Shown: positions 1 through 17,544 of the stretch, piece by piece
Layout of the letters: each line of letters starts with the position of its first letter
Numbering within the stretch: the first letter of the stretch is position 1
Source: an uncultured delta proteobacterium
Lineage (GTDB): Bacteria; Desulfobacterota; Desulfomonilia; UBA1062
Assembly: GCA_963798485.1 (NCBI GenBank)
Contig: CAWCTR010000014.1
Span: 32,001-96,000, forward strand
Reading direction: 5' to 3'
Length of the DNA stretch: 64,000 nt
Notes under the pieces: generated by a model
Databases searched by the model: none
Seen by the model: the letters and a program-made list of their open reading frames with translations, nothing else
Told to the model about the DNA's origin: nothing
Translations under genes and position numbers: made by a program

Positions 1-737
1 ATGCGGTTGCGTCCCTCGCAGATCTCCTTCAGTTTGTCCCAGTCCATGCGGCCGGGCGTGTGTTCCTCAAGCCATGCGATCATCCCCTTCAAATCGTCGG
101 CAAAGAGCTTATCCGCCCGTTCATTGTAAAAAATCGAGGGGACATCCAGGCGATAGATGGGCGTGCCATGCTCCCTGTGTATAAGGGCGTATGAGGCCAT
201 GCCGGCGTCACAGGGCATATTGGAGCTTACCATGGCAATGCCCTTGGGCATATGACCCTTGAGGACCATGCCCACGGTGGCCTTGGGCAGGCTGCAGGCA
301 TCGGGATTGATACCGGCATTTTCCGCCTCGTCTATGTATTTGAGGTCACTCTGGGCTGATAGAATCGGCAGCAGGATACCCATGGCCTCCAGTAGCCAGA
401 CCTTCAGGCCCATGGCACGGGCGATGTCGGGCGGTACCATCTCCTCGTTTATGATGAGTCGGTCCTGGTGGTAGAACAGGTCTTCCAGGTTTTCAGCCAG
501 CGTAACAGCAATGGTGTGTATGGTCATGCAGATGGATTCGAGGTATAACCCGCTCCGCCCCCGGGTGAGACGGCGCATCAGGCCCGTCACCTTTAAGAGG
601 TGCAGCATCCACGGATAGCGCCAAAGTTCTCGCACAAAACCAGGCCCCCTTCTGATGACAAGTTTAGCAATACACATCCAGATGAGCAGCCAGTATTTCG
701 CGTAGACCAGAAAATCTCCGGCAGAAAGGGCACTCAT
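1..737 (-). CDS. 2-hydroxyacyl-CoA dehydratase / benzoyl-CoA reductase B-type subunit (3' end runs off the window)
   Basis: Manual translation from ATG 737: MSALSAGDFLVYAKYW...YIDEAENAGINPDACSLPKATVG...SSNMPCDAG...IYRLDVP...LFADDLKGMIAWLEEHT..MDWDKLKEICE. The Cys motifs fit the HgdA/FldB/BcrB family. Not in the ORF track because it has no stop in the window. Confidence 0.85.
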   Translation of the reverse strand, partial: MSALSAGDFLVYAKYWLLIWMCIAKLVIRRGPGFVRELWRYPWMLHLLKVTGLMRRLTRGRSGLYLESICMTIHTIAVTLAENLEDLFYHQDRLIINEEMVPPDIARAMGLKVWLLEAMGILLPILSAQSDLKYIDEAENAGINPDACSLPKATVGMVLKGHMPKGIAMVSSNMPCDAGMASYALIHREHGTPIYRLDVPSIFYNERADKLFADDLKGMIAWLEEHTPGRMDWDKLKEICEGRNR

Positions 738-826
738 GTCATGGAAAAAAACAACCAGAGAATGTTGGAAAAAGTGCTTTACCCGGCCGGGCACGCTCCG
801 AAGGGATAATTGGAAAAGTCCGAGAT

Positions 827-897
827 TGTCATTCCCGCGGAAGCGGGAATCCAGTCTTTTAAAAAACTTCTGGACCCCCGCCTTCGCGGGGGTGACA
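827..897. repeat. REP/REPIN-like palindromic pair (GTCATTCCCGC..GCGGGAATCCA type)
   Basis: tgtcattcccgcggaagcgggaatccag (827-854) and inverted partner ctggacccccgccttcgcgggggtgaca (870-897); each half is itself a hairpin. Confidence 0.85.
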
Positions 898-990
898 CTC
901 TTTTTTATGTTTTGCAATTGGGTTAAAATTATGGGTTTTGCCATAATCAGTATGTCTTTTGGTGTCATTACCTATCCTCCCGCCTGCACA

Positions 991-2124
991 TCATTTGCCC
1001 ATACTTTCGATAAAGGCCTGGACCCGGGTACGCTGCTGTCCTTCAGAACCCAGACGGTATTCCCGTTCCAGCTTCAGCACCGGTATCCCCTCTTTGCGCA
1101 AAGCGCTTACCATGGGCATTGCATCCACACCCCAGAGGTCGCAGAACTTGATGATCTCGATGATTACGCCGTCCACCTTGTATTCCTTTACGGTGTCTAT
1201 GATGGTTTGCAGCCTGCGATCGAAATCTTCCATCATCCGCGGGCACAAGGTCTTCTTGAAGGAATGTTCGGCAAGGGTCCTGAAGGGATCACCCTTCATC
1301 TCTATGGGCATGAGCCCGGGGATGGAGCCGGTACAGAAACGGTCCGCCACAACAAGACCGCCTTGGGACTCAATGACCCTAATGAATTCCGGGTCGTGAA
1401 GATGCCCGCCCACCACCATTAAGCGGGCTCGGTAATTGTGGGTGCCATGGAGATTTTCTATCTCTTTTTTGTAATCAAGTATTTTCGGGAGGATCAGATC
1501 CTTGGGCGATACCAGTGAAGCCATGAGCAGCCCGTGGAACTCGGTGCCGGTGATGGGCGGGTTCGGTTTTTTACGCAGCTCGCCGATTGATTGTATGACT
1601 TCTGCAAAGTTGTTCCACTCATCAATGGCCTTCATGAGAGAGCTGTCGCCCATATCCACGCCGAAGTGCGACGAGAGCCGCTCAGCGAGCATCCTGAGCT
1701 CCTCGGCCATCCAGGCAGTAGTGACCTCGTTCACCTTGCGGGGCACATCGAGAACATGGTTGAAATCGGGTTTCTTGAGGTACTCCAGGTTATCATAGAG
1801 CCGTTGCATGTGTGCACATGAGGGGACGAAGATCCACCCCTTTATCAGGTCAAACCGGTCGTCCATGGCGAATTCGAGGAGGCTGCGCACATAGGAGCAG
1901 GTGAAGTTGGAAAGATAGTTGTCTGCGATCTCGGTGCCGGCAACCCCCGGGGCCCGCAAACGTACGGGAAACAGTCTGTCTGCCATGAGGAGGGCCTCGG
2001 GCACGAAGGAGCAGGAATACCCGATGGGTATGCGCCCGTTCAGGGCAGCCTGTTCGACCAGGCTGTTCTGCGGGGTTTCAAGAAGACCTTCGAATATACG
2101 CATCGTCTTACCGGTCGTCGTCAT
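991..2124 (-). CDS. 2-hydroxyacyl-CoA dehydratase / BcrC-type subunit
   Basis: IGYSCSFVPE, CSYVRS, PSCAHMQRL, VVADRFCTG, CPRM, KFCDLWG, RTRVQAFIE. Start placed at ATG 2124 after a GGGGGAAG SD-like sequence (ORF track starts at 2178). Confidence 0.9.
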   Translation of the reverse strand: MTTTGKTMRIFEGLLETPQNSLVEQAALNGRIPIGYSCSFVPEALLMADRLFPVRLRAPGVAGTEIADNYLSNFTCSYVRSLLEFAMDDRFDLIKGWIFVPSCAHMQRLYDNLEYLKKPDFNHVLDVPRKVNEVTTAWMAEELRMLAERLSSHFGVDMGDSSLMKAIDEWNNFAEVIQSIGELRKKPNPPITGTEFHGLLMASLVSPKDLILPKILDYKKEIENLHGTHNYRARLMVVGGHLHDPEFIRVIESQGGLVVADRFCTGSIPGLMPIEMKGDPFRTLAEHSFKKTLCPRMMEDFDRRLQTIIDTVKEYKVDGVIIEIIKFCDLWGVDAMPMVSALRKEGIPVLKLEREYRLGSEGQQRTRVQAFIESMGK

Positions 2125-2174
2125 AACACTTCCCCCGGTTCCATTACCGCAGGATGGTGGACAATGTGACTCTT

Positions 2175-2945
2175 TCATGGCAACAACCCGACCTTCTCGA
2201 GGATGTGTGCGACCTTAACAAGAGCAGGTGAGGTTTCAGGCATGCCGGTCAGCGGTTCGCCCCTGAAGTCCAACGATCTGATCAGGTCATCGTCGTCAAG
2301 CCATCCGTACATTTCAAGGTCTGTCCTGCGCCTGATGTCGTCCACCTCGGAGAGGTCCCTCACCCTGTTGAGAACGAGCCCCATGCCCTTGAAGTCAACA
2401 GCCTTCTTCTCGTTCGCAACGTGCGCTATGGTATTAGCAACGCCAAGACCTTTTACCGAGGTGTCCGACACCAGGACCAGGTGGTCCACGGTCTTCATCA
2501 CCCGCCTGTTGATCTGCTCGATGCCCGCCTCTCCGTCGATGAGCACGATATCAAACCGGCAGGCAAGGTCACCTATGATATCCTTGAGGAGGTTGTTCAC
2601 CTTGCAGAAGCAGCCTTCGTCCTCAGGCCTGCCGATGGACAGGAGGGCGTATCCGTCACGCTCATGGAGGGCATCGAAGACCTCATAGTCCAGGAGCTTG
2701 AGAGTCTCCCGGCCACCCTGGAGCCCGCCTTTCCGGATGTCTGCAACCAGTCCCTTTCTGATGTCGTCAACGGTCTTTTTCACGGTAATGCCCAGGGCCG
2801 ATGCCAGTCCCACGGCCGGGTCCGCGTCTATGGCGAGGATCTTCCGCTCGTTCCCGCCGGCCAGCAGCTTCACCATGAGGGCCGCAACAGAGGTCTTGCC
2901 GACCCCCCCCTTGCCGCACAGCGCGATGATCTTTGTATCAGTCAT
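2175..2945 (-). CDS. cooC: CooC/AcsF-family nickel-insertion ATPase
   Basis: Deviant Walker A GKGGVGKT, IDADP, CxC metal site GRPEDEGCFC, DGEAGIEQINRR. Confidence 0.85.
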   Translation of the reverse strand: MTDTKIIALCGKGGVGKTSVAALMVKLLAGGNERKILAIDADPAVGLASALGITVKKTVDDIRKGLVADIRKGGLQGGRETLKLLDYEVFDALHERDGYALLSIGRPEDEGCFCKVNNLLKDIIGDLACRFDIVLIDGEAGIEQINRRVMKTVDHLVLVSDTSVKGLGVANTIAHVANEKKAVDFKGMGLVLNRVRDLSEVDDIRRRTDLEMYGWLDDDDLIRSLDFRGEPLTGMPETSPALVKVAHILEKVGLLP

Positions 2946-3619
2946 GCAATACCCCTCGTGGAGTTTATTTCCAGCGCTCTTTCTGTCTCCTCAAGGACAG
3001 TGACCGCCGACTCCGCATAACCATCCGCCCCGTACTTTTCTGCCAATTGCCGGTCCAGCGGGGCTCCGCCTACCATGATAACCGTCCCCGGGCACTTCTG
3101 TCTTATTGTTCTGATTATGTCCGGCATACAGACCATGGTTGTGGACATCATGGCCGACAGAGCCAGGATCTCGGCTTTATTTTCGAGAACTGCACGCCCG
3201 AACTCTTCTGCCCTCACCTGCACACCCAGATCAACAACCCGGTAACCGCATGCCCTGTATACCCCTGAAATTATGCTCTTGCCTAAATCGTGCGGGTCAC
3301 CCTCGACCACGCCTATGACGATGGTCAAAGCCCCCTTATCTCCGGCGTCTCCGAATTCAGAGAGTTTCGCCAGCCCCTGTGTCGCTGCATCGATACAGAG
3401 GAGGAATTCGGGCAAAGAGGTATGATTCGACATCAAATTCCTTCTCAGAAGGTTGAGACCATCGAGGATAGCGTGGCGCACATCTTTCGTGGAAAGACCG
3501 GAATCCATCGCTCTGGTCGTCAGCACCACGGTTTCATCCACCTGGTAAGCAGCTACCGCTGCTTCGATATTTTCCATAAGTCCAACTTCTCTCTTATCCA
3601 TCCGGGTCCCTCTTTTCAT
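2942..3619 (-). CDS. Corrinoid (B12-binding) protein, MtaC/MtbC-like
   Basis: N-terminal cap helices plus DxHxxG motif (GVVEGDPHDLGK), LSAMMSTT, MVGGAP, GADGY. Confidence 0.9.
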   Translation of the reverse strand: MKRGTRMDKREVGLMENIEAAVAAYQVDETVVLTTRAMDSGLSTKDVRHAILDGLNLLRRNLMSNHTSLPEFLLCIDAATQGLAKLSEFGDAGDKGALTIVIGVVEGDPHDLGKSIISGVYRACGYRVVDLGVQVRAEEFGRAVLENKAEILALSAMMSTTMVCMPDIIRTIRQKCPGTVIMVGGAPLDRQLAEKYGADGYAESAVTVLEETERALEINSTRGIA

Positions 3620-4782
3620 CTATACACCTCTACTGCCTTGACCATGGCATATGCATTTTCAAGGGGGGCATTCTGGGGGAACTCGCAGCCGGGTGAAAGG
3701 ATATAACCCCCGCCGGGAGCGAGGTCATCGATCTGTTTCCTGCATTCCTCCATGACATCGTAAGGGGTGCCGCGCGTCAGCAGCGGGGTGTCTATCATGC
3801 CAATCAGCACAATGTGGTCTCCATAACGTTTCTTCAGCTCCTTACGGTTCGAACAGTCGTCCGGGAGGTGTGCGAAGCTTATTGCACAGGGCTCCATGCT
3901 TCGAATCTGTGCATCGAAATAAATCCCGTGACCGCAGTTGTGCACACCCACCAGGCAACCCTTTCTTCGGATTGCCGAGGCTATTTCCCGCGCAAACGGC
4001 CCCTCGATCTTTTCCCAGAGCCCCTTTGACAACCCGTTCCATGATGCGAAGAGGGTGTCGATTACAACCATAACCACCCCGACGTCGCACTGCGCTTCTG
4101 CAAATTCAATGAGCACACCCGTGATGGCTTCACACGCTGCCATGACATCCCCGGGTTGAGTAACACAGTCCTTGAAGAGTTCCTGTGTCCCTCGCATCAT
4201 GTTGAGCACACCCAACGGGCCGAAAAGAAATCCGGCTACAAACCCTTTGAGGCCTATCCTGCGAACCATTATGGATAGCGCCTTGGCATGCCCCTGCATG
4301 CGTACGGCATGCTTGAAATCAATCGGCTTGAGCTTTCTGTAATCCTCAATGTTCTTGATCACAGGGTTCGCGTAGTCGGGATGTGCGGTAGAGTTGTCCG
4401 GGTAAATAACCTTCTGTCCGAAATCGGCGGCCTCTATTGAGAGGTCCACCAGTGCGACCAAGCCGTCACCGCCGATGAGATTGAACCCGGCCAGAAAGGA
4501 CTCCGCAGCAATTACGGGGTCGGCGCAGAACTCCGCATAGGTGTTTCCGATAAGCCGTCTGCCTGCGCCGCATATTATGGGGCAGCAGGGGACACGGTCC
4601 GGCTCCTTGTGCCGGAGAGTCACCAGCATCCTCTCGAAATTTGTAAGGTTGCTGATGCGTCCCCTGGCACTGCATAAGCCCCCTGCAGCATCCAGAATGA
4701 AATCCGGCAGCAACGCGGGCGAGGGGGGTATCCCTTCAGCAAGGGTCTTGAGTGCCCTCCAAATATCCTTTGTGTCAGCCAT
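3616..4782 (-). CDS. MtaA/CmuA-like (UroD-fold) methylcobamide methyltransferase
   Basis: EPDRVP, DLSIEAADFG, Zn ligands VHNCG and SPGCE; adjacent to the corrinoid protein gene. Confidence 0.85.
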   Translation of the reverse strand: MADTKDIWRALKTLAEGIPPSPALLPDFILDAAGGLCSARGRISNLTNFERMLVTLRHKEPDRVPCCPIICGAGRRLIGNTYAEFCADPVIAAESFLAGFNLIGGDGLVALVDLSIEAADFGQKVIYPDNSTAHPDYANPVIKNIEDYRKLKPIDFKHAVRMQGHAKALSIMVRRIGLKGFVAGFLFGPLGVLNMMRGTQELFKDCVTQPGDVMAACEAITGVLIEFAEAQCDVGVVMVVIDTLFASWNGLSKGLWEKIEGPFAREIASAIRRKGCLVGVHNCGHGIYFDAQIRSMEPCAISFAHLPDDCSNRKELKKRYGDHIVLIGMIDTPLLTRGTPYDVMEECRKQIDDLAPGGGYILSPGCEFPQNAPLENAYAMVKAVEVYR

Positions 4783-5512: not shown

Positions 5513-5519
5513 GGGCCGG

Positions 5520-6305
5520 TCACTTCCCCTTGCCGGCAGCCTGGCGGGCAATGAGTGCCGCACCCAGGGCCCCGATGATCTGCGGGTCGGTCGCTATCTT
5601 CCTGAGCTTCACCCCCAGGGCCTCCTCAAGGGCCGCGAACATGCCGATGTTTTTTGCCACCCCTCCGGTCATGGTGATTTCGCTTTCGAGCTCTATACCC
5701 CTGGCAAGAGCAGCCACCCGGTGGGCCAGTGACTTGTGCAGCCCCGCCACGATATCGGGGAGGTTGTTGCCTGCATTGATCAGCGAGATGATCTCCGTCT
5801 CTGCGAAGACCACGCACTGGTTGGAGATGGAAAGGGGGTTCTTTGCCGTGGAGGATATTTCTCCCATATCTTCGAGATTGACCCCCATTGCCCCTGACAT
5901 CACCTCCAGGAACCTGCCCGTGCCGGATGCACACCGGTCGTTATAGGCAAAACGGATGACATTGCCGCGCTCATCCAGCCTGATGGCCTTGGCGTCCTGA
6001 CCACCGATATCGATCACCATATGTACTTCAGGCATGAGCCACTGGGCCCCTTTGCCGTGGCATATGATCTCCGACTCCACGGCATCGGCAAAGGGGATGG
6101 AGTTCCTGCCGTAGCCCGTGCCCACGCAGTATGAGATGTCTGCCAGACAAAGCCCTGCCTTATCGAGGGCCTTTTCCATCACCTCCCGGGCCGAATCCCC
6201 GGGCTCGGGCCGTGCGAATATCACGTGCGAGGCCAGTACATCGCCATTCTTCATGATGAGGGCCTTGGCGCTCAAAGAGCCGACGTCACATCCTGCGGTA
6301 AACAT
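5520..6305 (-). CDS. Acyl-CoA dehydratase activase (HgdC/BcrA/D-type ASKHA ATPase) 1
   Basis: MFTAGCDVGSLSAKA, GTGYGR, IDIGGQD, DRCASGTGRF, QCVVFAE, TGGVAKN. Start at 6305 overlaps the upstream stop. Confidence 0.92.
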   Translation of the reverse strand: MFTAGCDVGSLSAKALIMKNGDVLASHVIFARPEPGDSAREVMEKALDKAGLCLADISYCVGTGYGRNSIPFADAVESEIICHGKGAQWLMPEVHMVIDIGGQDAKAIRLDERGNVIRFAYNDRCASGTGRFLEVMSGAMGVNLEDMGEISSTAKNPLSISNQCVVFAETEIISLINAGNNLPDIVAGLHKSLAHRVAALARGIELESEITMTGGVAKNIGMFAALEEALGVKLRKIATDPQIIGALGAALIARQAAGKGK

Positions 6306-7087
6306 TAATCCCCTCCCATCTTCTCTTTGGCAAATACGGCAGCCCCCAGGGCGCCCATGACCTGAGGGTCCACCCTGAGCCTGCGCATGGGCACGCCCAG
6401 CTGTTTTTCCATGGCCTCGAGCACCCCGGCGTTCTTTGCAACACCGCCAGTCATGCACACATCCTTCTCAACACCTACTGACTTGGCCAGGATCGCAATC
6501 CTGGCCGCCATGGCCTGGTTGATGCCAGAAGCCAGGTCTGCCTTTGAGGTGTTCGAGTTGAGATGCATAATGACCTCGGCCTGGGCCCAGGCCGTGCAGG
6601 TAGCAGCCAGGGTGATGGGGTTTCTGGCTTGTGCGGATAGGCTGCCAAGGTCGTCCAACTCCAGGCCGAGGAGTTTTGCCATGACCTCAAGGAACCTGCC
6701 GGTACCCGACGCGCACTTGTCATTGGTGATGAACCTGACGATGTTTCCCTTCTCATCGAGGCGGATGGCCTTGCAGTCCTGCCCTCCGATGTCGATGACG
6801 GTCCTCACCGATTGCAGGAGCCAGTGGGCGCCCTTGGCATGGCAGGCGATCTCGGAGACGGCCTTGCCCACAAAGGGTATCCGCTCCCTGCCATAACCGG
6901 TCCCTACGCAGAACCCGATGTCCTTCATGGTGAGCCCGGCAGTGCTCAATGCCATATCCATAACTTCAGGCGCGGATTTTTCAGGGTTGAAGGATGAGGG
7001 GATCAGCGCATGGCTGATGACACGAGTGTTGTTGAGGATCACCGCCTTGGTGGTCAGTGATCCCACGTCACAGCCTGCAACGATCAT
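6305..7087 (-). CDS. Acyl-CoA dehydratase activase 2
   Basis: MIVAGCDVGSLTTKA, GTGYGR, IDIGGQDCK, DKCASGTGRF, TCTAWAQ, TGGVAKN. True start about 7087. Confidence 0.92.
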   Translation of the reverse strand: MIVAGCDVGSLTTKAVILNNTRVISHALIPSSFNPEKSAPEVMDMALSTAGLTMKDIGFCVGTGYGRERIPFVGKAVSEIACHAKGAHWLLQSVRTVIDIGGQDCKAIRLDEKGNIVRFITNDKCASGTGRFLEVMAKLLGLELDDLGSLSAQARNPITLAATCTAWAQAEVIMHLNSNTSKADLASGINQAMAARIAILAKSVGVEKDVCMTGGVAKNAGVLEAMEKQLGVPMRRLRVDPQVMGALGAAVFAKEKMGGD

Positions 7088-8490
7088 GACAAAATCCCCC
7101 TTACGTGCATGAACTCGCTGATCTTGTCCACACAGTGCTCCCATGATGCGACCCTGTCGTCGAAGGCATCGGCAAAGAGCAGCATGGTCGGCAGGCCTTC
7201 GCGCTCGCAATCGCGCTGGATAAGCTTGTTCGCGCCCCAGCTGTTGCGGCACCCCATGCTCCCTACATAGACAAGGAAGTCGGGCTTCATGATCTTCGAC
7301 ATGAAGAGGAGGTCGTCGCGCCACATTCCTTTCGCGTCATACGGCCCCCTGAGCTGTTTGACCATGGGCATGCGGGAATTGAGATCTGCCAGGGAGTCGA
7401 TCATGGTGTCAAGGGTGGAGGTGTCTATATGGTAGGTCTCGTCTTCGCGGCCCTTTGTATATTCATGGCCCTCGTTCCAGAAGTTGAATATGAGTGTAGG
7501 CAGGAGGCTGATATCCTGGGAATCGACCCATTCCCAGAACCGTGCATCCGTGGTGTAGTGGTCGATGTAGCACATGAGGAGCCGTGCCCGCTCCTTTTTC
7601 GAACCCGTGCCGGCATACCCGTGTGCTGCATTTTCACGTACGACTTTGAGCATGGACTCGAGCACGGCGGTGTATGATTTCCTGCCCGGCATGCTAAGCC
7701 TTCCGGCATAGATGAACAGGGTGAAGATGGGAGGGACCGGGCATGGTCTGAGCCTCATGAGGTCATAGAGTTCGATAGCGAGCTCATCCTGGCGTTTTTG
7801 CTCTTCGAGGAGATCTTTCAGCTTGTCCTCGTTCAGGCGTGACCCCGATTGCTCCTCGATAAAGGAGATGAGGGCCTTGTAGTCCTTGCGGTGATAGTCG
7901 TCGATCCTCTCCCCCGTGAGCTTTGAGGGAAAGTTGAGCTGGAACATGGGGAGGTCGAGGTAGGATGAAAGAAATTGGACCGCATTGCCATTCGTATCGC
8001 AGATGCCGGGAGATCCGCAGATGAGAAAATCGGGCTTCTCGGCAAGGCCTGCCAGGTACGCCCCGAACGACCCGCGCTGGGCAGAGCAGGATGTCTCGGT
8101 GAATCCCACCTCGCAGCAATAGTCCATGTACTCGGCCGTACCCTTCCTCAGTACCAGCGTACCGAATACGGTCATGATCTCCGCCCAGGCGGGCACCACG
8201 TTGTCAAAGGCGAAAAGCAGGTGTTTTGCCGAGACAAAGGTGCCGAGGCACAGCTTCTTCCCCTGATCATGCGCGGTCATGACGTCGGTGAGGTATTCGG
8301 CCGCCATCTTCATGAAGAGCACGCCTGGCTCTCCGTGCCGTAACATCGCGCCCAGGACGTTCTTGAAGTTCGGTATGACCCGTTTCAGGCCTTCATACTC
8401 TTTTTGAGTCCCGTCAAGGGATGCTGCAGCAGCACTGATTGTGGACCAGAGCATCCAGTCGTAGTTATACTCGCGCGTTTCCTTCTTCAT
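7084..8490 (-). CDS. 2-hydroxyacyl-CoA dehydratase / BcrB-type subunit
   Basis: ETSCSAQRG, PGICDTN, GSMGCRN motifs; AGGAGG SD upstream of ATG 8490. Confidence 0.85.
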   Translation of the reverse strand: MKKETREYNYDWMLWSTISAAAASLDGTQKEYEGLKRVIPNFKNVLGAMLRHGEPGVLFMKMAAEYLTDVMTAHDQGKKLCLGTFVSAKHLLFAFDNVVPAWAEIMTVFGTLVLRKGTAEYMDYCCEVGFTETSCSAQRGSFGAYLAGLAEKPDFLICGSPGICDTNGNAVQFLSSYLDLPMFQLNFPSKLTGERIDDYHRKDYKALISFIEEQSGSRLNEDKLKDLLEEQKRQDELAIELYDLMRLRPCPVPPIFTLFIYAGRLSMPGRKSYTAVLESMLKVVRENAAHGYAGTGSKKERARLLMCYIDHYTTDARFWEWVDSQDISLLPTLIFNFWNEGHEYTKGREDETYHIDTSTLDTMIDSLADLNSRMPMVKQLRGPYDAKGMWRDDLLFMSKIMKPDFLVYVGSMGCRNSWGANKLIQRDCEREGLPTMLLFADAFDDRVASWEHCVDKISEFMHVRGILS

Positions 8491-8503
8491 ACATGATACC
8501 TCC

Positions 8504-9646
8504 TCAAACTGAGATCCTCTCCATAAAAGCATCAAGGCGCATCATGATCCTGCCCGTCTCCACCAGGGGGCCGTACTCTCTCTCGAGCCGCATGCAGGGG
8601 ATGCCTGCGGCCTCGAGGTCGCGCTCAAGCACACCGTTCTCCGAACCGTGAAGGTCGCAGAAGCGCACGTTCTGAAGGATGACTCCGTCTACCGAGGCCT
8701 TGTTCACGAGGTCCATGATGTAGGAGCGCCGGTCCTTGTAATAGCCGAGCATGCGCGGGCAAATGCTGTTGTTCAGATAATGTGAAGCAAGCGTATGGAC
8801 GGGGTCTGCCTTATCATCCACCAGGTTTGCATAGGTGCGTGACCCGAAGCATACGGTGTCTGCAACGACAATGGCGCCGCCATCCTCGACCAGCCTGATG
8901 AAATCCACATCGTCATTGGCGCTCCCGATAAGCATGAGGCGCTTCTTATGGTCCGATACGGACGGCGCCTTCTCAAGAGAGGCAATGATATCTTCGAGCA
9001 TGGTTCCCCAAACCTCGCGCGGCATGGCATGGCCTGCTATGAGGATTGCCATGGCATCCGATCCCGTGATGGGAACCTCCTCATGGTACCTGAGACCGTC
9101 GAGTTTATTCAAGAGAACCCTGCCCTGGTTGTAGACCTTGATGGATTTTTTCAGTGCCTTGTCCGTGATCTTGACCTTGAAGTGTTTTTCCAGGGTGGCG
9201 ATCATATCCTTGAGCTCTTGTGCGTAAAAATCGATGCTGTAATCCACTGACTTGTGAGGTACCGAGAAGTACTCATAGTATTCCGGCAGGGTGCCCGGGT
9301 AATCTTCGCTCGCCTTTCTCCAGCACTCCTCCAGCCTGCGCATGGAGTCACAGCCGTTACTGATGATGGCGCCGTCTAAAAACGTATACGAACCCTGCCC
9401 TGCGAGCTGAAGCATGCACTTTGGCAGGCTGCAGTTTACCGGACCGAAGTATGAATCACCGATGGAGACTTTCGTGGTGCCGACACCGCGTAATCTGAAG
9501 GGAAGCAGCCCTGCGGCATGAAGGATCTCTTCGGGTATGAAGGTGCACGAGTAACCCACAACCTTGCCCCCGTCCTTCTTCCACTTCTGTATAAATTCAT
9601 TATTCAAGCCCGTTGCAGCACTTTGAAGTTTATCCATCATTTTCAT
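8504..9646 (-). CDS. 2-hydroxyacyl-CoA dehydratase / BcrC-type subunit
   Basis: VGYSCTFIPEE, NCSLPKC, NGCDSMRR, ICPRM, RFCDLHG, RLDAFME; paralogous to 991-2124. Confidence 0.9.
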   Translation of the reverse strand: MKMMDKLQSAATGLNNEFIQKWKKDGGKVVGYSCTFIPEEILHAAGLLPFRLRGVGTTKVSIGDSYFGPVNCSLPKCMLQLAGQGSYTFLDGAIISNGCDSMRRLEECWRKASEDYPGTLPEYYEYFSVPHKSVDYSIDFYAQELKDMIATLEKHFKVKITDKALKKSIKVYNQGRVLLNKLDGLRYHEEVPITGSDAMAILIAGHAMPREVWGTMLEDIIASLEKAPSVSDHKKRLMLIGSANDDVDFIRLVEDGGAIVVADTVCFGSRTYANLVDDKADPVHTLASHYLNNSICPRMLGYYKDRRSYIMDLVNKASVDGVILQNVRFCDLHGSENGVLERDLEAAGIPCMRLEREYGPLVETGRIMMRLDAFMERISV

Positions 9647-9649
9647 TTC

Positions 9650-10933
9650 TCACCCCCTGCTGCCTGCGGCCAGGGCTGTCCTTAAAGACTCCATGGCCTG
9701 CTTGTGCTCCGGACTCGCATAGCCCTCATCAGGGCTTATCAGCTCACTTAAGGACTTGATGAAAAGCGGCATCACGGTTGTTGCCAGGGGCTTGATGGCA
9801 GCAACCACATCGGGGACCATCCATTGGACAGTTCTTTTGATCTCTTCGGAATCCAAGGAATCTACTACCCCGCTCAAGGTGTTGCTTACGATGTCCGGCT
9901 TGGCATCATGGATCCTGTTCGCGACCCTGCATGCAGTATTCACGAGGCCGGCTATCTCGTAGGTGTCAAGATCCGACATGCTCTCGGATACAGCCGCCTT
10001 CAGGCCATCAGGGTCGATCTCCTCGATGATGCCTAGTTTGCGGGATTGAGCTTTGATGTCGGAGGTCTTCATTGACCCAAGAGATGCCAGGCAGGATAAG
10101 GTTATTTCGGGATTGTCAGTGAGTGCCTCTGCCATGGCATTTGCTATGGCCCCCCTGTCCTGGGCGAATATGATGCGGATCTTTTTCGCCAGCTCCGGGT
10201 CCATCTCAGGGAGGCAGTCATGGAGAAAGTCAGTGAGGTAGATCTGGAACAGGGGCTTGCCGCCCTTTCCGAGCAGGAGGCTGCCGGTGTGGACCCTGCG
10301 GATGACCTCGCATACGGAATTGATGAGCTTTGCGGTGTCCGCGCCGTTGATACCCTTGATGACGGAGAGCATGATGTCTGCCAGCAGGTCGGGGCCGATT
10401 TTCTTCTCGATGGGGACCAGGATCTCTCGGGAACCTTTTATGAAGGTGTTTATAAGTGGGATGATGGTCGCAACCAGGGTACCCACCTTGGCAGGGTATT
10501 TCCAGAGCTGCTCGTTGAAAGCCTCCAGGGTCTTGATCACGTACGGGTCCGATCCTTCAACCATCTCCCTGATCTCGCCGAAGTCGGTATTCTTCAGGAA
10601 GCTGTGGATGGCATCACCGCGCGTTCCGATGCGACAGGCGGTATCAGCCGCATGGTCGGCATTGACCTTCTTCGCCCATACGGTCAGGAGCCTGCCCACA
10701 TCGGCTGATATACCTTTATTGTTCCCATTTTTGCCCGGCCGCAGGAGTCTTGACACGATCCATTTGGCGCTAGGGGCAATCCTGGCCCTGATACCACCCT
10801 TGTCCGCCCATGAGTTGATAAGGTCTTTAACGAGCTCGGCAAGTAAGGTCTTGGTGCCCGAAGCACGTATGATCTCTGTGATGATCCTGGCAGAGACCTG
10901 TGCAAGTTCATCTTTATTTTCAGTGGTATTCAT
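9650..10933 (-). CDS. Hypothetical alpha-helical repeat protein
   Basis: 427-aa ORF co-oriented inside the operon, GGGAGG SD; internal repeat shared with the two smaller ORFs upstream. Confidence 0.75.
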   Translation of the reverse strand: MNTTENKDELAQVSARIITEIIRASGTKTLLAELVKDLINSWADKGGIRARIAPSAKWIVSRLLRPGKNGNNKGISADVGRLLTVWAKKVNADHAADTACRIGTRGDAIHSFLKNTDFGEIREMVEGSDPYVIKTLEAFNEQLWKYPAKVGTLVATIIPLINTFIKGSREILVPIEKKIGPDLLADIMLSVIKGINGADTAKLINSVCEVIRRVHTGSLLLGKGGKPLFQIYLTDFLHDCLPEMDPELAKKIRIIFAQDRGAIANAMAEALTDNPEITLSCLASLGSMKTSDIKAQSRKLGIIEEIDPDGLKAAVSESMSDLDTYEIAGLVNTACRVANRIHDAKPDIVSNTLSGVVDSLDSEEIKRTVQWMVPDVVAAIKPLATTVMPLFIKSLSELISPDEGYASPEHKQAMESLRTALAAGSRG

Positions 10934-10938
10934 CCTTA

Positions 10939-11613
10939 TTAACCTCCCGAGTCATCTATTTCTGATTCAGCTCTCGCCTTTTTCCCTGCTTCAGATAAAT
11001 ACGATTCGAACATGGTGTTGCTGAGCGAAGTGAGCATGCCGATGGCCTCTTCCCGGGTAAATTTCTCCTCCATGAGAAAGCTGTGGCCGAGGTGCATGGC
11101 CATGCCTACCACTGCATAGGCCAGGGTATGGGGATTCACCTTGGCGATGATGCCGATATCCAGCCATACCTGGATGTCATCGGCCAGGTCCTGGGCGATG
11201 TCGCTGTAGTGGCGCCATACATTTCCGTCCAGTTCCTCGTCGATGCCGAAGCTGCCGCGAAGCAGGATGAGGAACTGCTGGCGGTGGCTGTTGATGTAGT
11301 CGAAATAGGCGGTATAAGTCTCATCGAGTTTTGCCAGGCGATCGATGCGATCCCATATGTTCACCGGTTCCCGGAGCTTCTTGATGCGGGCCCTGAAGTC
11401 TTCGAAATTCCGGGAGGTGAGCTGTTCGAACAGGTCTCTCTTGTCCTTGAAGTAATTATAAAAGGTGCCGGCTGACATGCCAGCAGCCTTGACGATGTCC
11501 ATGACCTGGGTGTTGTGGTACCCGTGCTGGCTGAAAAGCTCCTCAGCCGCCTCGATGATCATGTCCTTGGTGTACTGTCGTTTTTTCTCTATAAGACTAG
11601 CCATCTGTTCCAT
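10939..11613 (-). CDS. TetR/AcrR-family transcriptional regulator
   Basis: IIEAAEELFSQHGYHNTQVMDIVKAAGMSAGTFYNYFKDKRDLF helix-turn-helix. Confidence 0.93.
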   Translation of the reverse strand: MEQMASLIEKKRQYTKDMIIEAAEELFSQHGYHNTQVMDIVKAAGMSAGTFYNYFKDKRDLFEQLTSRNFEDFRARIKKLREPVNIWDRIDRLAKLDETYTAYFDYINSHRQQFLILLRGSFGIDEELDGNVWRHYSDIAQDLADDIQVWLDIGIIAKVNPHTLAYAVVGMAMHLGHSFLMEEKFTREEAIGMLTSLSNTMFESYLSEAGKKARAESEIDDSGG

Positions 11614-11637
11614 TTCCTCGCCGATAATTTAAACTGT

Positions 11638-11720
11638 GTAGGAGCGCCTTCAGGCGCGATAAGCAACGGCCGCAGCTTTAAGCCGTATCTGCTCTCCATC
11701 GCGGCTTAAGCCGCTCCTAC
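11638..11720. repeat. GTAG-family REP pair (REPIN)
   Basis: gtaggagcgccttcaggcgcgat ... atcgcggcttaagccgctcctac; a second copy lies at 17423-17477. Confidence 0.85.
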
Positions 11721-12370
11721 GATTTATTCAATCTTTTGCGAACCCTGCCTTTTACAAGCTGCCATGCCCACGAGATGAGGCGCCACTTCTGGTCAAGGAA
11801 TGCCCCGGCCAGGGTAAGGGAGGCCTTGCTGACCTCCGGGCCGTCGATGTTCCTGAGCACCGAAGCGATGAAGGTGCTGAAGGCCTGCGGATTGTTATGG
11901 GTTACCGCGTTGACGAACCGCGCCAGGGAGTTGATGGCCCCTGCCTTTATCTTGGGGCCTGAAGAGAGGATGAATCCCGCGGCAGCCTGCCTGAGTTCAG
12001 GTGATGCACTCCACAGGGAAGAGAGCAACTCCATCCATCTTTTTCCGCATTGTCTGGCTGCATCCTTGTCGATGTCCTCGGCCAGGCTCATGAGGAACGA
12101 TTTCAGCATCTCGGGGGGATACTTGTCTTTGAGCTGGACGGCGAGCTCAGTGAATGCACTGATCAGGGTATTGATAAGCACGGGCAGGCTGCTGATGAGG
12201 TCGAAGAAGACCTCAGGGTCCTGGCCGAGAAGGGTTTTCACCATCTGACTGCCGGTTTTGGGATCCATCTCGTTCAGGTTCACCCTGAGTATGTCCTTAA
12301 ACAGGGGAGAACGGATGAGCTCTCTCAAGATGCCTGACCTATCCCTGGTGGGTGATTCCCTATGCATCAT
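11717..12370 (-). CDS. Hypothetical protein (paralogue of 12367-12798)
   Basis: ELIRSPLFKD.LR..L..MDP.TGSQMVKTLLGQDPEV aligns by eye with ELFAKTAFKDSLRLFLKSIDPDSSPQLVRTLLGTDIEV. Confidence 0.75.
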   Translation of the reverse strand: MMHRESPTRDRSGILRELIRSPLFKDILRVNLNEMDPKTGSQMVKTLLGQDPEVFFDLISSLPVLINTLISAFTELAVQLKDKYPPEMLKSFLMSLAEDIDKDAARQCGKRWMELLSSLWSASPELRQAAAGFILSSGPKIKAGAINSLARFVNAVTHNNPQAFSTFIASVLRNIDGPEVSKASLTLAGAFLDQKWRLISWAWQLVKGRVRKRLNKS

Positions 12371-12798
12371 AAACCCCCCTTATCCTGGACAGACTTTCCC
12401 TCCATGGCCCTTAAGGCAACCAGGAAGACAGGTTCCAGATCCTTACCCAGGTCCCTTATTTCCGTGATGAGACGGGCAAGGGTATCCTTGTCTATGTCTT
12501 GAAGGAGCGATTCCACAAAGCCTGCAAGCAAAGGCGGTGGGAACTTCCCTCGCACCTGCACGACGAGCTCCATGCCTGCCTTGATAAAGCAATTCGCGAT
12601 AGCAGGAAGCGCCCCCACCACGGCCAGGGGCACCTCGATATCCGTGCCCAGCAATGTTCGTACGAGCTGTGGGCTGCTGTCCGGATCTATGCTCTTCAGG
12701 AAAAGGCGAAGGCTGTCTTTGAAGGCGGTCTTTGCGAAAAGCTCTTCGAGGACCCTGCTCCTGGATTCGATCAATCCTGTGTTCGTGGTTTCTTCCAT
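12367..12798 (-). CDS. Hypothetical protein (paralogue of 11717-12370)
   Basis: GAGGTG SD; overlapping start/stop with the next gene; shared motif. Confidence 0.75.
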   Translation of the reverse strand: MEETTNTGLIESRSRVLEELFAKTAFKDSLRLFLKSIDPDSSPQLVRTLLGTDIEVPLAVVGALPAIANCFIKAGMELVVQVRGKFPPPLLAGFVESLLQDIDKDTLARLITEIRDLGKDLEPVFLVALRAMEGKSVQDKGGL

Positions 12799-12807
12799 GG
12801 CATCACC

Positions 12808-14082
12808 TCACAGGGTTTCACAGTTGAAAAAGTATCTGGCGGCCTCCATCTGGCAGAGCTGCTTGCCGCCCATCCAGAGCTGAACGATCTTCACATCCCG
12901 CCAGTGCTTCTCGATGTCCCAGTCGCGGTCTGCACCATAGTGACCGAGCACGTCCATGGCCTTGCCGAAGCATTCGATGGCCCGGTCGGACACGAAGTCC
13001 TTGATGTTGCGGATCCTTCCCACCACGTCTTCCGAGATCAGCGGCTTGCCATAGGGCTTGTTCCTGCGGTCGCCGATCATGGCCGCCTCATGACCGAGGA
13101 TGCGGCAGATGTCGATGTCGCCGGCAATACGACCGATAATGGCGGCAATGGCATCATTTTCCTTTAAGGGACGATTGTTGTAGGTTCGGGTAGACACAAA
13201 TTCGTACAGTCTTTCATACAGGTTCAGCATGGCGCCGGTAAGGAACGAACAGCTCATGACCTGTCCGAAGGATATGAGCTGGTAAAAGGCCTCGGCGTCT
13301 TTGCCCGGACCGTGTGCCCGGTACCAGCTGGGTACGCGGACATCCTCGAACCATATATCGCCGTTCTTATCCGCAGCCATGCCCGCCTTTTCGTAGGCCC
13401 CGCCCTGGGTAACACCCGGTAAGTCGGCAGGGACAAAGATAAAGGCAAAATCCTTAGGGTCGCTGGAGCCGAGCTTGGTGGTGCATGGAACGCCGAAGAG
13501 CTTCGAGACCCCGCCGGAGTTCGTGGGCCAGAGCTTATGGCCGTTGATCACCCATTCGTCACCATCGAGGCGGGCCGTGGTGCGGATGGTTTTGCCTCCC
13601 AGCAGGCCAAGGTTCTCGATGTCAGCCCCGCCTTGTGGCTCGGTCATGGCATTGGCTGCAAACACGGCCTTCTTTGCATTGCAGAACATGGGTGCAAACT
13701 CGGCTATGAGCCGCTCGTTCTCGTAGGGCTCCACCATGATCACGAGCAGGGGCCAGAAGGTTACGGCCAGTGCCACTGCCATGCCCGTATCCGCCCTTCC
13801 GAGCTCCTCGCAGAGCATGTACCCAACCCGGAAGACATAATCTGACTTTGCCAAGCCCCAACCGCCGTACTCCTGGGGAAAGAGAGATTTTTGAAGACCC
13901 AGGTCGGCCATGAGTTTGTCAAAGGCGGGTTCTATGAAGTGGTGGTCCTTCCAGTCCTCGTCGTATTTGCGGCGCTCGGGCATGACCCATTCATCAATAT
14001 GCTTCCTGATGAGGCGCCTGAAATGCTTGTCGAAGGGGGATATGTATTCCTCGGGGCGTGAAAATTCATCGAAATGGTTCAT
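12808..14082 (-). CDS. Acyl-CoA dehydrogenase family protein
   Basis: AMTEPQGGAD, WVINGHKLWPTN, FEDVRVP, GHYGADRDWDIEKHWRDVK. Confidence 0.92.
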   Translation of the reverse strand: MNHFDEFSRPEEYISPFDKHFRRLIRKHIDEWVMPERRKYDEDWKDHHFIEPAFDKLMADLGLQKSLFPQEYGGWGLAKSDYVFRVGYMLCEELGRADTGMAVALAVTFWPLLVIMVEPYENERLIAEFAPMFCNAKKAVFAANAMTEPQGGADIENLGLLGGKTIRTTARLDGDEWVINGHKLWPTNSGGVSKLFGVPCTTKLGSSDPKDFAFIFVPADLPGVTQGGAYEKAGMAADKNGDIWFEDVRVPSWYRAHGPGKDAEAFYQLISFGQVMSCSFLTGAMLNLYERLYEFVSTRTYNNRPLKENDAIAAIIGRIAGDIDICRILGHEAAMIGDRRNKPYGKPLISEDVVGRIRNIKDFVSDRAIECFGKAMDVLGHYGADRDWDIEKHWRDVKIVQLWMGGKQLCQMEAARYFFNCETL

Positions 14083-14092
14083 GATTTCCTCC

Positions 14093-15334
14093 CTAGATCT
14101 CAGTGCAGTTGAAAAAGAAACGGGCAGTGTCCATCTTCACCGGGGCCTCGGCGCCGACGCCGCAGAGCACGGACTGTATGGTCTTCACATCCCTCCAGTG
14201 TTTTTCCACGTGCCACTCCTTGGAATATCCTGCAGAGCCCATGAGCTCCAGGCCCCGGTTCATGGCTCGAAGAACGCCCTGTTGCGCCCGGCTCCCGATC
14301 ATCTCGGCAAAGGTGAAGGTCCTTGTTATGTTGCCGCCTGACATTTCTCCAGGCCTGGCAATGATCCGGGCCAGGTCGAAGAGCAGCAACTTGGCGAGCG
14401 CGATCTCCTCTGCCACATCCGCTAGAACAGAGGCACACAGGGGATTTTCCTTCAGGGTGGTGCCGCCCTTGATGACCCGTGTTTCTCCCCAATCATTGAT
14501 CAGCTCAAAGAAGTTCACGGCAGCACCGACGCTCACGCCGCCCAGGAACAGGTTGAGCCAGATATAGAACTCCTCTACGATGCCGTCTTCCTCGATAACG
14601 TTTTCCTTGGGGACCTTAACTTCATGGAAGGTCACATCAGTGTTCACACAGGCATTCAGGCCGGTCGTCAGCAACGGTGAGCCCAGGGTAACCCCTTGTG
14701 CATCCGCCGGGACAAAGGCGATGCAGGGCGTGCCCTTTTTCCCGGCACACACAACACAGAAGAGATCGGCCATGAAGCCTGCAAACAGGGGCCTGAGACT
14801 GGTGCCCATGATGGTATATCCATCCTTTACTGCCTTTGCCTCGGCAAGGATTGCCCTGCCTTTAAATAATGGGTGCGTGGTGCCTGCTATACCGGGCCCG
14901 GCAACGATAGGGCAAGGGGTTCTGATATTACTGCCGGTATACGCACGAGCAATAGCGGTAGCGAGTTTCTTGTTAAGATGGTGTTCCATGGCGATCATGG
15001 CAAAGGCAGTGCAGGTTGCCGCTGAGAGCACACCGAGCGCGGCATCGGCCCTGCCGATCTCGGTAAGGATGGTGAGCATTCCCGCTCCATTGGAAAGGCT
15101 GTTCCATCCGAAACCACCGAGATCCGCAGGTATAACAAGTTTCTGGAGGCCGATGTCGAGGTTAAGCTTCTTCCTTTTTTCTTCGAAGAGCCTGTCGTAG
15201 TTCTCCCTGTACTCCATTCTCTTGGAGATGATCTCTTTATCAGCCCACTGCCTGACAAGGCGGACTACGCTTGCGCTTTCGTCATCAATCACCTGCCCCG
15301 GATACACAAAAAGGTCATCCACATTCCTGCTCAT
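14093..15334 (-). CDS. Acyl-CoA dehydrogenase family protein, degenerate (probable partner subunit)
   Basis: IPADLGGFG, EIGRADA, FHEVKVP, GSAGYSKEWHVEKHWRDVK; the FAD-binding TEP..GSD motif is missing. Confidence 0.88.
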   Translation of the reverse strand: MSRNVDDLFVYPGQVIDDESASVVRLVRQWADKEIISKRMEYRENYDRLFEEKRKKLNLDIGLQKLVIPADLGGFGWNSLSNGAGMLTILTEIGRADAALGVLSAATCTAFAMIAMEHHLNKKLATAIARAYTGSNIRTPCPIVAGPGIAGTTHPLFKGRAILAEAKAVKDGYTIMGTSLRPLFAGFMADLFCVVCAGKKGTPCIAFVPADAQGVTLGSPLLTTGLNACVNTDVTFHEVKVPKENVIEEDGIVEEFYIWLNLFLGGVSVGAAVNFFELINDWGETRVIKGGTTLKENPLCASVLADVAEEIALAKLLLFDLARIIARPGEMSGGNITRTFTFAEMIGSRAQQGVLRAMNRGLELMGSAGYSKEWHVEKHWRDVKTIQSVLCGVGAEAPVKMDTARFFFNCTEI

Positions 15335-16349: not shown

Positions 16350-16391
16350 CTAACTCCTTGAAAGGGAAGCATAAATACATTTTATTGCGGA

Positions 16392-16420
16392 AGAATATGT
16401 CCTAAGGGTCAAGATGTCAA
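16392..16420 (-). promoter_or_regulatory. sigma70-type promoter of the tetR gene
   Basis: TTGACA (16420-16415), 17 nt, TATTCT (16397-16392). Confidence 0.55.
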
Positions 16421-16547
16421 GTCAAATGCTTGTGATGATGTACTCCGTAAGGATATGGACGTCATACTTAATTCATGGTACTCACCTTCGATAGTAATAT
16501 TCAAGCTACTGCAAGCGAAGTCAAAAATTATGTGAGGAAAAAAAGCT

Positions 16548-17312: not shown

Positions 17313-17331
17313 GCTTCAGAAAGAAGAAAAA

Positions 17332-17426
17332 GATAGAGGTATCATCCTTGAAGATGTTCACCCGAGCACTTCTTCAAGAATCCTACACATGAGCGTGCAC
17401 AGCAGTTTATGAGGCAGATCCTGTAG
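17332..17426 (+). pseudogene. C-terminal remnant of a GlnQ-like amino-acid ABC ATPase
   Basis: DRGIILED / frameshift / SPEHFFKNPTHERAQQFMRQIL* matches the typical end of polar amino-acid ABC ATPases; no start codon and no permease gene. Confidence 0.75.
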
Positions 17427-17477: not shown

Positions 17478-17544
17478 AATATTAGGGTTACAGCTCCTAA
17501 ATCATTGACAACTCCCCAATGTGTATGCCAAAAACATCACCTGT

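Follow-up and report, generated by a model that had tools for sequence, protein, structure and literature searches.

Two ATP-driven HGD-D enzyme modules accompanied by a CooC-family ATPase and a stand-alone acetyl-CoA synthase A2-domain protein in a probable CoA-ester catabolic operon of a Desulfomonilia bacterium

The DNA considered here is a stretch of 64,000 nucleotides from an uncultured sediment bacterium, a delta proteobacterium of the class Desulfomonilia (contig CAWCTR010000014.1, positions 32,001 to 96,000, or G000:C14:32001-96000 in our numbering of genomes and contigs; hereafter the window). Bases 1-15334, on the minus strand, carry the larger part of an operon in which genes for ATP-driven radical enzymes of the HGD-D family stand next to genes for a CooC-family ATPase (CooC-like) and for a small protein related to acetyl-CoA synthase (AcsB-like). 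We observed 16 consecutive minus-strand open reading frames (ORFs), in the order that the initial annotation of this DNA had given (Table 1). A Pfam family match was obtained for 13 of them. With the probable starts, neighbouring genes overlap by 4-8 nt or are separated by gaps of at most 13 nt, except for 103 nt upstream of the TetR gene. A mostly tight 16-gene unit with the families listed by that annotation is therefore confirmed by Pfam, NCBIfam and the junctions, and the joining of enzymes of the 2-hydroxyacyl-CoA dehydratase and benzoyl-CoA reductase type with CooC-like and AcsB-like proteins is borne out by gene families and coupling. Some of the listed ORFs start too early and bear spurious 5' extensions; the probable starts are 8490 for A2, about 7087 for ATPase1, 6305 for ATPase2 and 5512 for AcsB-like. 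In the B2 ORF, the initial 60 codons or so are a translated repeat element and not protein. Indeed, a GC-rich palindromic repeat lies at about 830-900 (minus strand) in the B1-B2 spacer, and its translation (…TPAKAGVQ…LDSRFRGND…), a peptide signature that we take to occur in many deltaproteobacterial genomes, makes up the false N-terminus.

Table 1. Genes of the operon within the window, with their positions, strand and the matches on which they were named.
Gene	Position	Strand	Evidence
ACAD1 (acyl-CoA dehydrogenase)	14093..15334	-	Pfam Acyl-CoA_dh_N/_1/_2; ACAD middle domain not matched
ACAD2 (acyl-CoA dehydrogenase)	12808..14082	-	Pfam, all three ACAD domains
hyp143	12367..12798	-	helical; no Pfam or NCBIfam match
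hyp217	11717..12370	-	no Pfam or NCBIfam match; hyp143 paralogue
TetR regulator	10939..11613	-	Pfam TetR_N 1.1e-19
hyp427, helical, 427 aa	9650..10933	-	no Pfam or NCBIfam match
HGD-D A1, BzdN/BcrC/HadC/DCCP-like beta	8504..9646	-	Pfam HGD-D 1.1e-85; six-Cys motif
HGD-D A2, divergent BzdO/HadB-like alpha	7084..8490 (ORF open to 8535)	-	Pfam HGD-D 4.7e-40
ATPase1, BcrAD/BzdQ-like activase subunit	6305..7087 (ORF open to 7324)	-	Pfam BcrAD_BadFG 6.5e-60; TIGR00241 232.7 bits
ATPase2, distinct BcrAD/BzdQ-like activase subunit	5520..6305 (ORF open to 6458)	-	Pfam 3e-56; TIGR00241 244.1 bits
AcsB-like, 245 aa	4775..5512 (ORF open to 5563)	-	Pfam CdhC 2.4e-11
URO-D/MtaA-family methyltransferase	3616..4782	-	Pfam URO-D 5.8e-57
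MtaC/MtbC-type corrinoid protein (CorP)	2942..3619	-	Pfam B12-binding 2.2e-23; DPHDLG
CooC-family P-loop ATPase	2175..2945	-	CooC1 3KJE E 2.8e-18; C112-x-C114
HGD-D B1, beta	991..2178	-	Pfam 4.4e-83; six-Cys motif
HGD-D B2, alpha, cut at window end	1..968	-	Pfam HGD-D; MbdO E 7.3e-8

The operon runs about 5.3 kb beyond the left end of the window (locus L011, G000:C14:14001-34000), where we found the rest of HGD-D B2, a 436-aa Cys-rich 2x[4Fe-4S] protein (Fer4), a third BcrAD ATPase (ATPase3), an AOR-family protein and a 154-aa polyferredoxin. The polyferredoxin gene is the last of the operon and is directly followed by an IS701/IS4-like transposase gene (L011 11113-12423; G000:C14:25113-26423). 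Below, A1 and A2 with ATPase1 and ATPase2 are called module A, and B1 and B2 with a single activase gene module B.

Which of these genes belong together was seen from their conservation in other genomes. With AcsB-like as a probe we found 21 related loci in metagenome-assembled genomes (MAGs) labelled Desulfomonilia, Syntrophales, Smithellaceae or 'Deltaproteobacteria', and compared them by tblastn. Their common order is ACAD-ACAD-hyp-hyp-TetR-hyp-A1-A2-ATPase-ATPase-AcsB-like-CooC-B1-B2-Fer4-ATPase. The CooC-like gene comes immediately after AcsB-like, with a 4-nt overlap, in 17 of the 21 loci and after the MtaA/CorP pair in three; the remaining one is cut. Where both flanks are complete, CooC-like, HGD-D and ATPase genes all lie at most 5 kb from AcsB-like (11 of 11 loci).

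A second set of loci, from Firmicutes, came from an alignment of a sub-branch of the AcsB-like family. With it, over 565 loci were obtained from MAGs of gut and rumen Oscillospiraceae and Lachnospiraceae; 80 were kept, and 29 of these have at least 5 kb on each side. Fifteen of these 29 loci carry CooC-like together with an HGD-D pair and one BcrAD ATPase, seven have CooC-like as the sole adjacent partner, one has HGD-D and ATPase alone and six have none of them, so that CooC-like is present in 22/29 and HGD-D with ATPase in 16/29. The usual order is CooC - beta - alpha - ATPase - AcsB-like. In addition, the Firmicutes module proteins best match B1, B2 and ATPase3, the latter being 58-59% identical between the two phyla.

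Among 201 sampled genomes of the window's own phylum, 19 have the small AcsB-like form, at 27 places. Sixteen places, in 11 other genomes, were examined, and at 15 of them the AcsB-like gene is detected by tblastn. These 15 loci belong to other families of the phylum; 14 have HGD-D next to AcsB-like, 13 an ATPase and 10 CooC-like, and a genome of a sister family (L115) has the order HGD-D - CooC - AcsB-like - ACAD. From the locus counts across both phyla, we conclude that the conserved unit is module B (HGD-D beta, HGD-D alpha and one activase) with CooC-like and AcsB-like, and not the B12 genes. The initial annotation had expected the nickel- and B12-related genes to accompany such dehydratases elsewhere. 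This holds for CooC-like and AcsB-like, but not for the MtaA and corrinoid genes, which are present in 3 of the 21 related loci, in 2 of the 11 with full flanks and in none of the 29 Firmicutes loci.

We then characterized the AcsB-like protein. A PDB search with the family profile returned acetyl-CoA synthase (ACS) and CdhC chains only (E 1.7e-16), aligned over ACS residues ~308-498. Its AF2 model is confident (pLDDT 93.1), and Foldseek with this model found ACS chains alone at E<=1e-3 (E 1e-10). By VIA-align, residues 27-206 of the model superpose on residues 316-495 of Moorella ACS with Z 19-20 and an rmsd of 2.0-2.4 A over about 172 residues, the next unrelated match having Z 3.4. The family was also aligned with two full-length 735-aa AcsB proteins from relatives in the class. 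In this alignment C213, C216 and C222 fall on the first three Cys of the A-cluster cube motif, with a C-x2-C-x5-C spacing instead of the C-x2-C-x8-C of AcsB, and the protein ends about 20 residues past the third Cys, so that the stretch with the fourth [4Fe-4S] Cys is absent. The Cys-Gly-Cys segment of the Ni-Ni site, carried by both 735-aa proteins, is absent as well. The AcsB-like protein is thus only the A2 domain of ACS, i.e. the middle, CoA-binding domain, plus the first three A-cluster Cys. Having neither the fourth Cys nor Cys-Gly-Cys, it cannot hold the Ni-Ni A-cluster.

In the AcsB-like family (40 aligned sequences), each of the three Cys is conserved in 39/40 and R141 in 39/40, while W139 is found in 31/40. 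In the structure of Clostridium autoethanogenum ACS, it is chiefly the A2 domain that binds acetyl-CoA, whose adenine stacks on Trp405 (bioRxiv 10.1101/2024.08.05.606187). We observed that this Trp405, the W of 'TWVRIGKEA', aligns with the W of the REWxRISK segment of the AcsB-like family, and that the protein binds CoA is a reasonable inference from the alignment. By exhaustive search the family comprises 556 representative clusters at E<=1e-3 (386 at E<=1e-10), mostly of 235-250 aa. The idea that AcsB-like is a decaying ACS remnant was ruled out by this large family, its near-invariant residues and the confident fold. The gene is single copy in the source genome, and neither carbon monoxide dehydrogenase (CODH; CooS/AcsA) nor the corrinoid iron-sulfur protein (AcsCD) was found by Pfam in the operon, within the window and in its extension. 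The likeness to AcsB/CdhC covers the A2 fold (Z 20), a WxRISK-type CoA-binding segment and three A-cluster Cys, and the likeness to ACS loci with AcsF/CooC covers the adjoining CooC-family ATPase with its CXC motif, whereas domains A1 and A3, the fourth cluster Cys, Cys-Gly-Cys and any link to CODH or the corrinoid iron-sulfur protein are missing. A 546-571-aa AcsB-like 'fusion' in one relative proved to be an artefact of stop-to-stop frames, the ATPase and AcsB-like matches lying in different frames.

The alignment of the CooC-like protein with CooC1 (3KJE) is full-length (residues 7-253), and its Cys-x-Cys falls on the CXC of CooC1. The deviant Walker A motif GKGGVGKT and C112/C114 are invariant in 25 module-linked CooC-like sequences from two phyla, those from Firmicutes being 41-47% identical to the window's. 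A CODH-like gene on contig C19 of the same genome has CooC paralogues of its own, 31-36% identical to the window's. Complex modelling had been put forward by the initial annotation; a CooC-like dimer with AcsB-like gave a median score of 0.65 (runs 0.51, 0.65 and 0.68) when three controls all gave 0.00. In the calibration of the modelling tool, 58 of 80 solved complexes attained 0.65, as did 2 of 110 mismatched pairs. The runs have at least 56% of contacts in common, with a partner pLDDT of at least 79, and among the residues of the predicted interface are W139 and C222 of AcsB-like and, from the second CooC copy, residue 115 beside CXC. We know of no solved CooC-ACS complex, so that a score drawn from the model's memory seems unlikely. 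These predictions support binding of the CooC-like dimer to the AcsB-like protein.

The catalytic subunits were compared with reference families by NCBIfam scores and PDB alignments. A1 matches HadC (1.3e-38) and BzdN (5.7e-38). Six Cys are invariant in seven beta sequences (A1, B1 and five Firmicutes homologues), at positions which align with BzdN Cys. In BzdN, six Cys hold an [8Fe-9S] double cubane (PMC11971306). A2 aligns with BzdO, its three Cys falling on C95, C128 and C380, and B2 aligns with MbdO, three Cys falling on the [4Fe-4S] ligands. Based on these alignments, the six-Cys beta site and the three-Cys alpha site of the Bzd type appear to be kept. The only NCBIfam model passed is the activase domain model TIGR00241 (cut-off 125.4 bits), by ATPase1 and ATPase2. 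For the Bzd models the scores are 147.3 against a cut-off of 453.8 (BzdN), 22.6 against 448.6 (BzdO) and 204/198 against 380.2 (BzdQ); for double_cubane (NF040772), A1 has 172.9 and B1 154.6 bits against 350; for HadB/HadC, A1 has 154 and B1 95.9 against 700, and A2 35.8 and B2 29.7 against 750. The AF2 model of the 436-aa Fer4 protein has a pLDDT of 42.8.

A1, A2, ATPase1 and ATPase2 are adjacent and coupled, which is the four-gene make-up of Bzd-type class I benzoyl-CoA reductases (BzdNOPQ; MbdONQP): one beta subunit of the N type, one alpha subunit of the O type and two BcrAD ATPases that differ from each other, with the six Cys of A1 and the three Cys of A2 aligned with those of BzdN and BzdO. 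However, module A scores far under the equivalog cut-offs, and neither a BzdM-type ferredoxin nor genes of the downstream dienoyl-CoA pathway were seen in the window. Module B, a beta/alpha HGD-D pair with a single activase gene, rather resembles the double-cubane cluster protein with its reductase (DCCP/DCCP-R), HadBC/HadI and HgdAB/HgdC. Its beta subunit has the six Cys, and the best NCBIfam model for B1 is double_cubane. DCCP is a homodimer, whereas module B is heteromeric with a long alpha subunit. In addition, module B is accompanied by CooC-like and AcsB-like, which we found described for none of these systems.

Several of the remaining genes of the operon and of its relatives point to acyl-CoA chemistry. 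ACAD1 and ACAD2 are adjacent in related loci also, and ACAD1, judged from its domain matches, is probably the non-catalytic partner of a heteromeric acyl-CoA dehydrogenase. The best NCBIfam match of ACAD2 is cyclohexane-1-carbonyl-CoA dehydrogenase, with 111.5 bits against a cut-off of 650, and its PDB matches are generic acyl-CoA dehydrogenases. hyp143 and hyp217 are paralogues (46% identity over 93 aa), both kept in related loci; hyp427 is weakly similar to hyp217 (BLASTP E 6e-5), and an Atlas search with it gave 'hypothetical protein' clusters alone. In the flanks of relatives we observed genes for a short-chain dehydrogenase/reductase (SDR), a 4HBT thioesterase, an enoyl-CoA hydratase (ECH), an ADP-forming acyl-CoA synthetase and a GMC oxidoreductase, and also an AMP-dependent ligase followed by AOR and ferredoxin. 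These flanking genes fit the breakdown of an acid as its CoA ester; the acid may be aromatic or alicyclic. In some relatives, a 276-280-aa flavodoxin + 2x[4Fe-4S] fusion is encoded after CooC-like (L012 11593-12426, L014 13429-14259, L031 13383-14225). It precedes B1 in L012 and L031 (L014 has no B1). The window lacks this fusion, which may act as a dedicated source of electrons. Beside the Firmicutes module, three of the five loci scanned encode a protein of about 690 aa with Oxidored_FMN and Pyr_redox_2 domains (L034 1650-3920, L063 9832-11925, L097 1725-3785), which by its domains would be an old yellow enzyme of the enoate/2,4-dienoyl-CoA reductase type.

Outside the operon, a second TetR gene lies just upstream (15666-16349), and a 175-nt direct repeat of 82% identity (11416-11590 and 16152-16326) corresponds to the 5' parts of the two TetR paralogues. 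Across 16000-24000 the GC content falls from about 0.55 to 0.35-0.45. The genes there encode a solute-binding protein, a TPR protein, an aminotransferase, a GNAT protein and a glycosyltransferase, and this part may be an acquired envelope-sugar island. From 21.5 to 64 kb the window holds housekeeping and envelope genes, and further catabolic genes were not found there.

Taking these data together, we propose, with a probability of roughly 0.55, that the locus is a CoA-ester catabolic operon which combines a Bzd-type reductase-like enzyme with a double-cubane-type enzyme bearing a metallochaperone/CoA-binding accessory pair. What this proposal says of the substrate class, of the metal and of the roles of the accessory pair and the B12 pair is conditional, and goes beyond the gene content, conservation, folds, motifs and supportive interface model that we observed. 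The operon would catabolise a carboxylic acid handled as its CoA thioester, in a bacterium of the Desulfomonilia/Syntrophales-labelled kind. It would have four layers. The first is module A, a putative four-subunit enzyme like class I benzoyl-CoA reductase; the second is module B with CooC-like and AcsB-like and, in this lineage, also the Cys-rich 2x[4Fe-4S] protein; the third would consist of beta-oxidation-type and feeder enzymes, namely the ACAD pair here and AOR, CoA ligases, ECH, SDR and thioesterase in relatives; and the fourth, in few lineages, is the MtaA/corrinoid pair between AcsB-like and CooC-like. Because the enzymology of HgdABC/HadBCI, BzdNOPQ and DCCP is known, a path for the electrons can be proposed. 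Reduced ferredoxin would deliver an electron to the [4Fe-4S] cluster of an ASKHA ATPase dimer, ATP hydrolysis would drive it into the beta subunit, onto a six-Cys cluster of the [8Fe-9S] type, and from there it would reach the alpha subunit with its three-Cys [4Fe-4S] cluster, where the thioester-conjugated substrate would be reduced or dehydrated by radical chemistry. AcsB-like would be an accessory subunit that binds CoA or acyl-CoA, its three-Cys site being a candidate for an Fe-S cluster with an open position, possibly bridged to Ni, and the CooC-like dimer would load or mature this site.

Several observations weigh against this proposal. For every catalytic subunit the NCBIfam equivalog scores stay under the cut-offs. 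The alpha subunits of known structure are very remote from A2 and B2 (E 2e-3 to 7e-8), and where BzdO has its catalytic His131, A2 has Asn, in a weak alignment (E 0.0021) that leaves Glu65 outside the aligned stretch; with this distance and this Asn, ring reduction is not established. W139, which would stack on CoA, is substituted in 9 of the 40 AcsB-like family members. CooC-like is not near AcsB-like in 7/29 Firmicutes loci and in 5/15 loci of the phylum, and no association is obligate at each locus. The locus sets are top hits and their kin, neither random nor independent, so that the fractions given above are descriptive only; three of the 21 related loci (L014, L015 and L031) come from one MAG, CAWAUM01. 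The complex score is the model's own confidence, and the job, with its own alignments and three chains, is unlike the calibration jobs. Finally, a second cluster in the same genome, which runs off a contig end (L136, G000:C5:122700-134717), encodes an ACAD, an AOR-like protein, HGD-D beta and alpha, two BcrAD ATPases, a CooC-like protein 37% identical to the window's and a Fer4_436-like protein (64-66%). Here CooC-like accompanies the HGD-D pair, both ATPases and the Fer4 protein in a cluster that lacks AcsB-like, and hence CooC-like may serve the HGD-D enzyme and not AcsB-like.

This last point leads to the explanation that best survives beside the one we prefer, although we hold it to be rather unlikely. 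Here CooC-like, with or without AcsB-like, would be a maturase that assembles or repairs the [8Fe-9S] double cubane of HGD-D enzymes, as NifH does for the nitrogenase P-cluster, and would remain outside the working enzyme. CooC proteins are known metallocentre maturases; the window's protein resembles CooC1, it accompanies an HGD-D pair and ATPases without AcsB-like in L136, and the six-Cys motif of double-cubane type is invariant in the beta subunits. Moreover, the review PMC7317905 likens the double cubane to P-cluster precursors, which supports such a role. However, CooC-like and AcsB-like form a lone adjacent pair, with HGD-D not within 5 kb, in 7/29 Firmicutes loci, and a domain of the CoA-binding type has no obvious part in cluster assembly. 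The complex model, which puts AcsB-like on the CooC-like dimer, is compatible with AcsB-like as a client and as a co-chaperone alike.

If instead AcsB-like is the client of CooC-like, as in the operon model that we favour, the metal and its chemistry could be specified further. CooC-like might install Ni or another metal at the three-Cys site of AcsB-like, which would then be a Ni-Fe-S, CoA-binding subunit performing ACS-like C-S or C-C chemistry on the acyl-CoA for the HGD-D enzymes. We consider this more specific version unlikely. If it were true, in the lineages with the insert the AcsB-like protein would accept or donate a methyl group.

The initial annotation went further, and saw in AcsB-like, CooC-like, MtaA and the corrinoid protein a mini corrinoid/nickel ACS-like unit, by which an acyl-CoA radical or enolate produced by the HGD-D enzymes would undergo methyl or alkyl transfer, or (de)carbonylation. 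In its favour, the four genes are translationally coupled in the window, and the MtaA/CorP pair stands precisely between AcsB-like and CooC-like there and in three related loci (L013, L014 and L031); A2 is the CoA-binding domain of ACS and the CXC metal motif of CooC is conserved. In addition, a distant URO-D gene directly follows AcsB-like in two genomes of another family (L124 8429-9511 and L126 8799-9845; Pfam 2e-65 and 5e-63; 22-24% identical to the window's). However, at these two loci we saw neither a B12-binding match nor a CooC-like gene, and of the 20 related loci in which the junction is covered, 17 lack the pair, as do 9 of the 11 with full flanks and 29/29 Firmicutes loci. AcsB-like moreover has neither the fourth [4Fe-4S] Cys nor the Cys-Gly-Cys ligands for both nickels. 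Methyl-transfer systems such as Mta and O-demethylases need a donor-side and an acceptor-side enzyme, and the operon has a single methyltransferase. With a truncated A-cluster site and B12 genes that rarely co-occur, the mini acetyl-CoA synthase does not stand, and we regard it as decidedly improbable.

We concluded that the MtaA/corrinoid pair is a lineage-specific accessory insert. The MtaA-like protein aligns with the MtaA structure 4AY7 (E 5.3e-12), including the positions of HxC and of the C in PGC, which we take to be the zinc ligands (His-x-Cys...Cys) of MtaA. It is under the subfamily cut-off (94.3 against 235.4 bits). The corrinoid protein has DPHDLG for the DxHxxG motif and scores 112 bits with NCBIfam MtbC (cut-off 350) and 109.9 with TIGR02370 (cut-off 215.3). 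Between L014 and the window the MtaA-CorP-CooC segment is 86-93% identical, when A1 and A2 are just 71-72% identical, which suggests from the sequences that this segment moves between paralogous clusters by cassette exchange. MAG CAWAUM01 has at least three copies of the cluster (three loci listed; four matches in G007), with the insert in two copies and absent from one. The pair is like the MtaA/MtaC and O-demethylase systems in its URO-D-fold methyltransferase with aligned His-x-Cys and Cys and in its DxHxxG corrinoid protein, but differs from them by the single methyltransferase, the lack of an activator in the operon and scores under the NCBIfam cut-offs; unlike MtaA/MtaC, it is embedded in an acyl-CoA radical-enzyme operon. 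We suggest, with low confidence, that it serves as an accessory for demethylation of, or methyl transfer on, a methylated or methoxylated variant of the substrate. Within the four-layer operon described above, it would most likely remove or transfer a methyl group on a methoxylated variant, and the corrinoid would be re-reduced by a RACo encoded elsewhere.

That no such corrinoid activator (RACo; RACE/RamA in the wording of the initial annotation) lies in the window is correct, and the genome has two RACo homologues elsewhere, one on contig C21 and one on C17. The one on C17 belongs to a separate corrinoid methyltransferase cluster with two URO-D-like genes and two corrinoid proteins (G000:C17:206356-213176). 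It had also been suggested that the activase/HGD-D modules themselves reactivate the corrinoid protein by ATP-dependent reduction of Co(II) to Co(I), and the kinship of ASKHA ATPases and RACo as related ATP-driven systems of uphill electron transfer (PMC7317905) would support it as would the placement of both homologues on other contigs; but since RACo is encoded elsewhere, once beside the second MtaA/corrinoid cluster, since HGD-D/ATPase modules have no corrinoid genes in most loci, and since the relative L017 has RACo and a B12 protein beside a cluster without the insert, the activases are not needed for this purpose and we consider the idea very improbable.

The claim that the combination matches no known pathway agrees with our literature search, in which no publication joining CooC or AcsB-like genes with enzymes of the HGD-D/BCR type was found, most subscription journals and supplements lying outside the search. 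One apparent 'CooC' match (PMC10134865) was the word 'cooccurrence'. A search on Desulfomonilia, peat and benzoyl-CoA gave nothing relevant.

The HGD-D family, which comprises 2-hydroxyacyl-CoA dehydratases, class I benzoyl-CoA reductases and double-cubane proteins, performs some of the most reducing chemistry in biology, and its enzymes have so far been understood as catalytic subunits plus an ASKHA activase. A conserved subclass of them, seen in two phyla which include common gut and rumen Clostridia, has in addition a CooC-type metallochaperone and an ACS A2 protein that stands alone. If the predicted complex is right, CooC-family ATPases would gain a client outside CODH/ACS. A 556-cluster family of ACS fragments is defined, whose members are called acetyl-CoA synthase by annotation pipelines; PF03598 matches of about 245 aa are therefore no evidence for the Wood-Ljungdahl pathway. 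The module points to a new candidate type of cofactor or subunit. If AcsB-like is indeed a Ni-Fe-S subunit, it would represent a new class of nickel enzymes, present in anoxic sediments and in abundant gut Oscillospiraceae.

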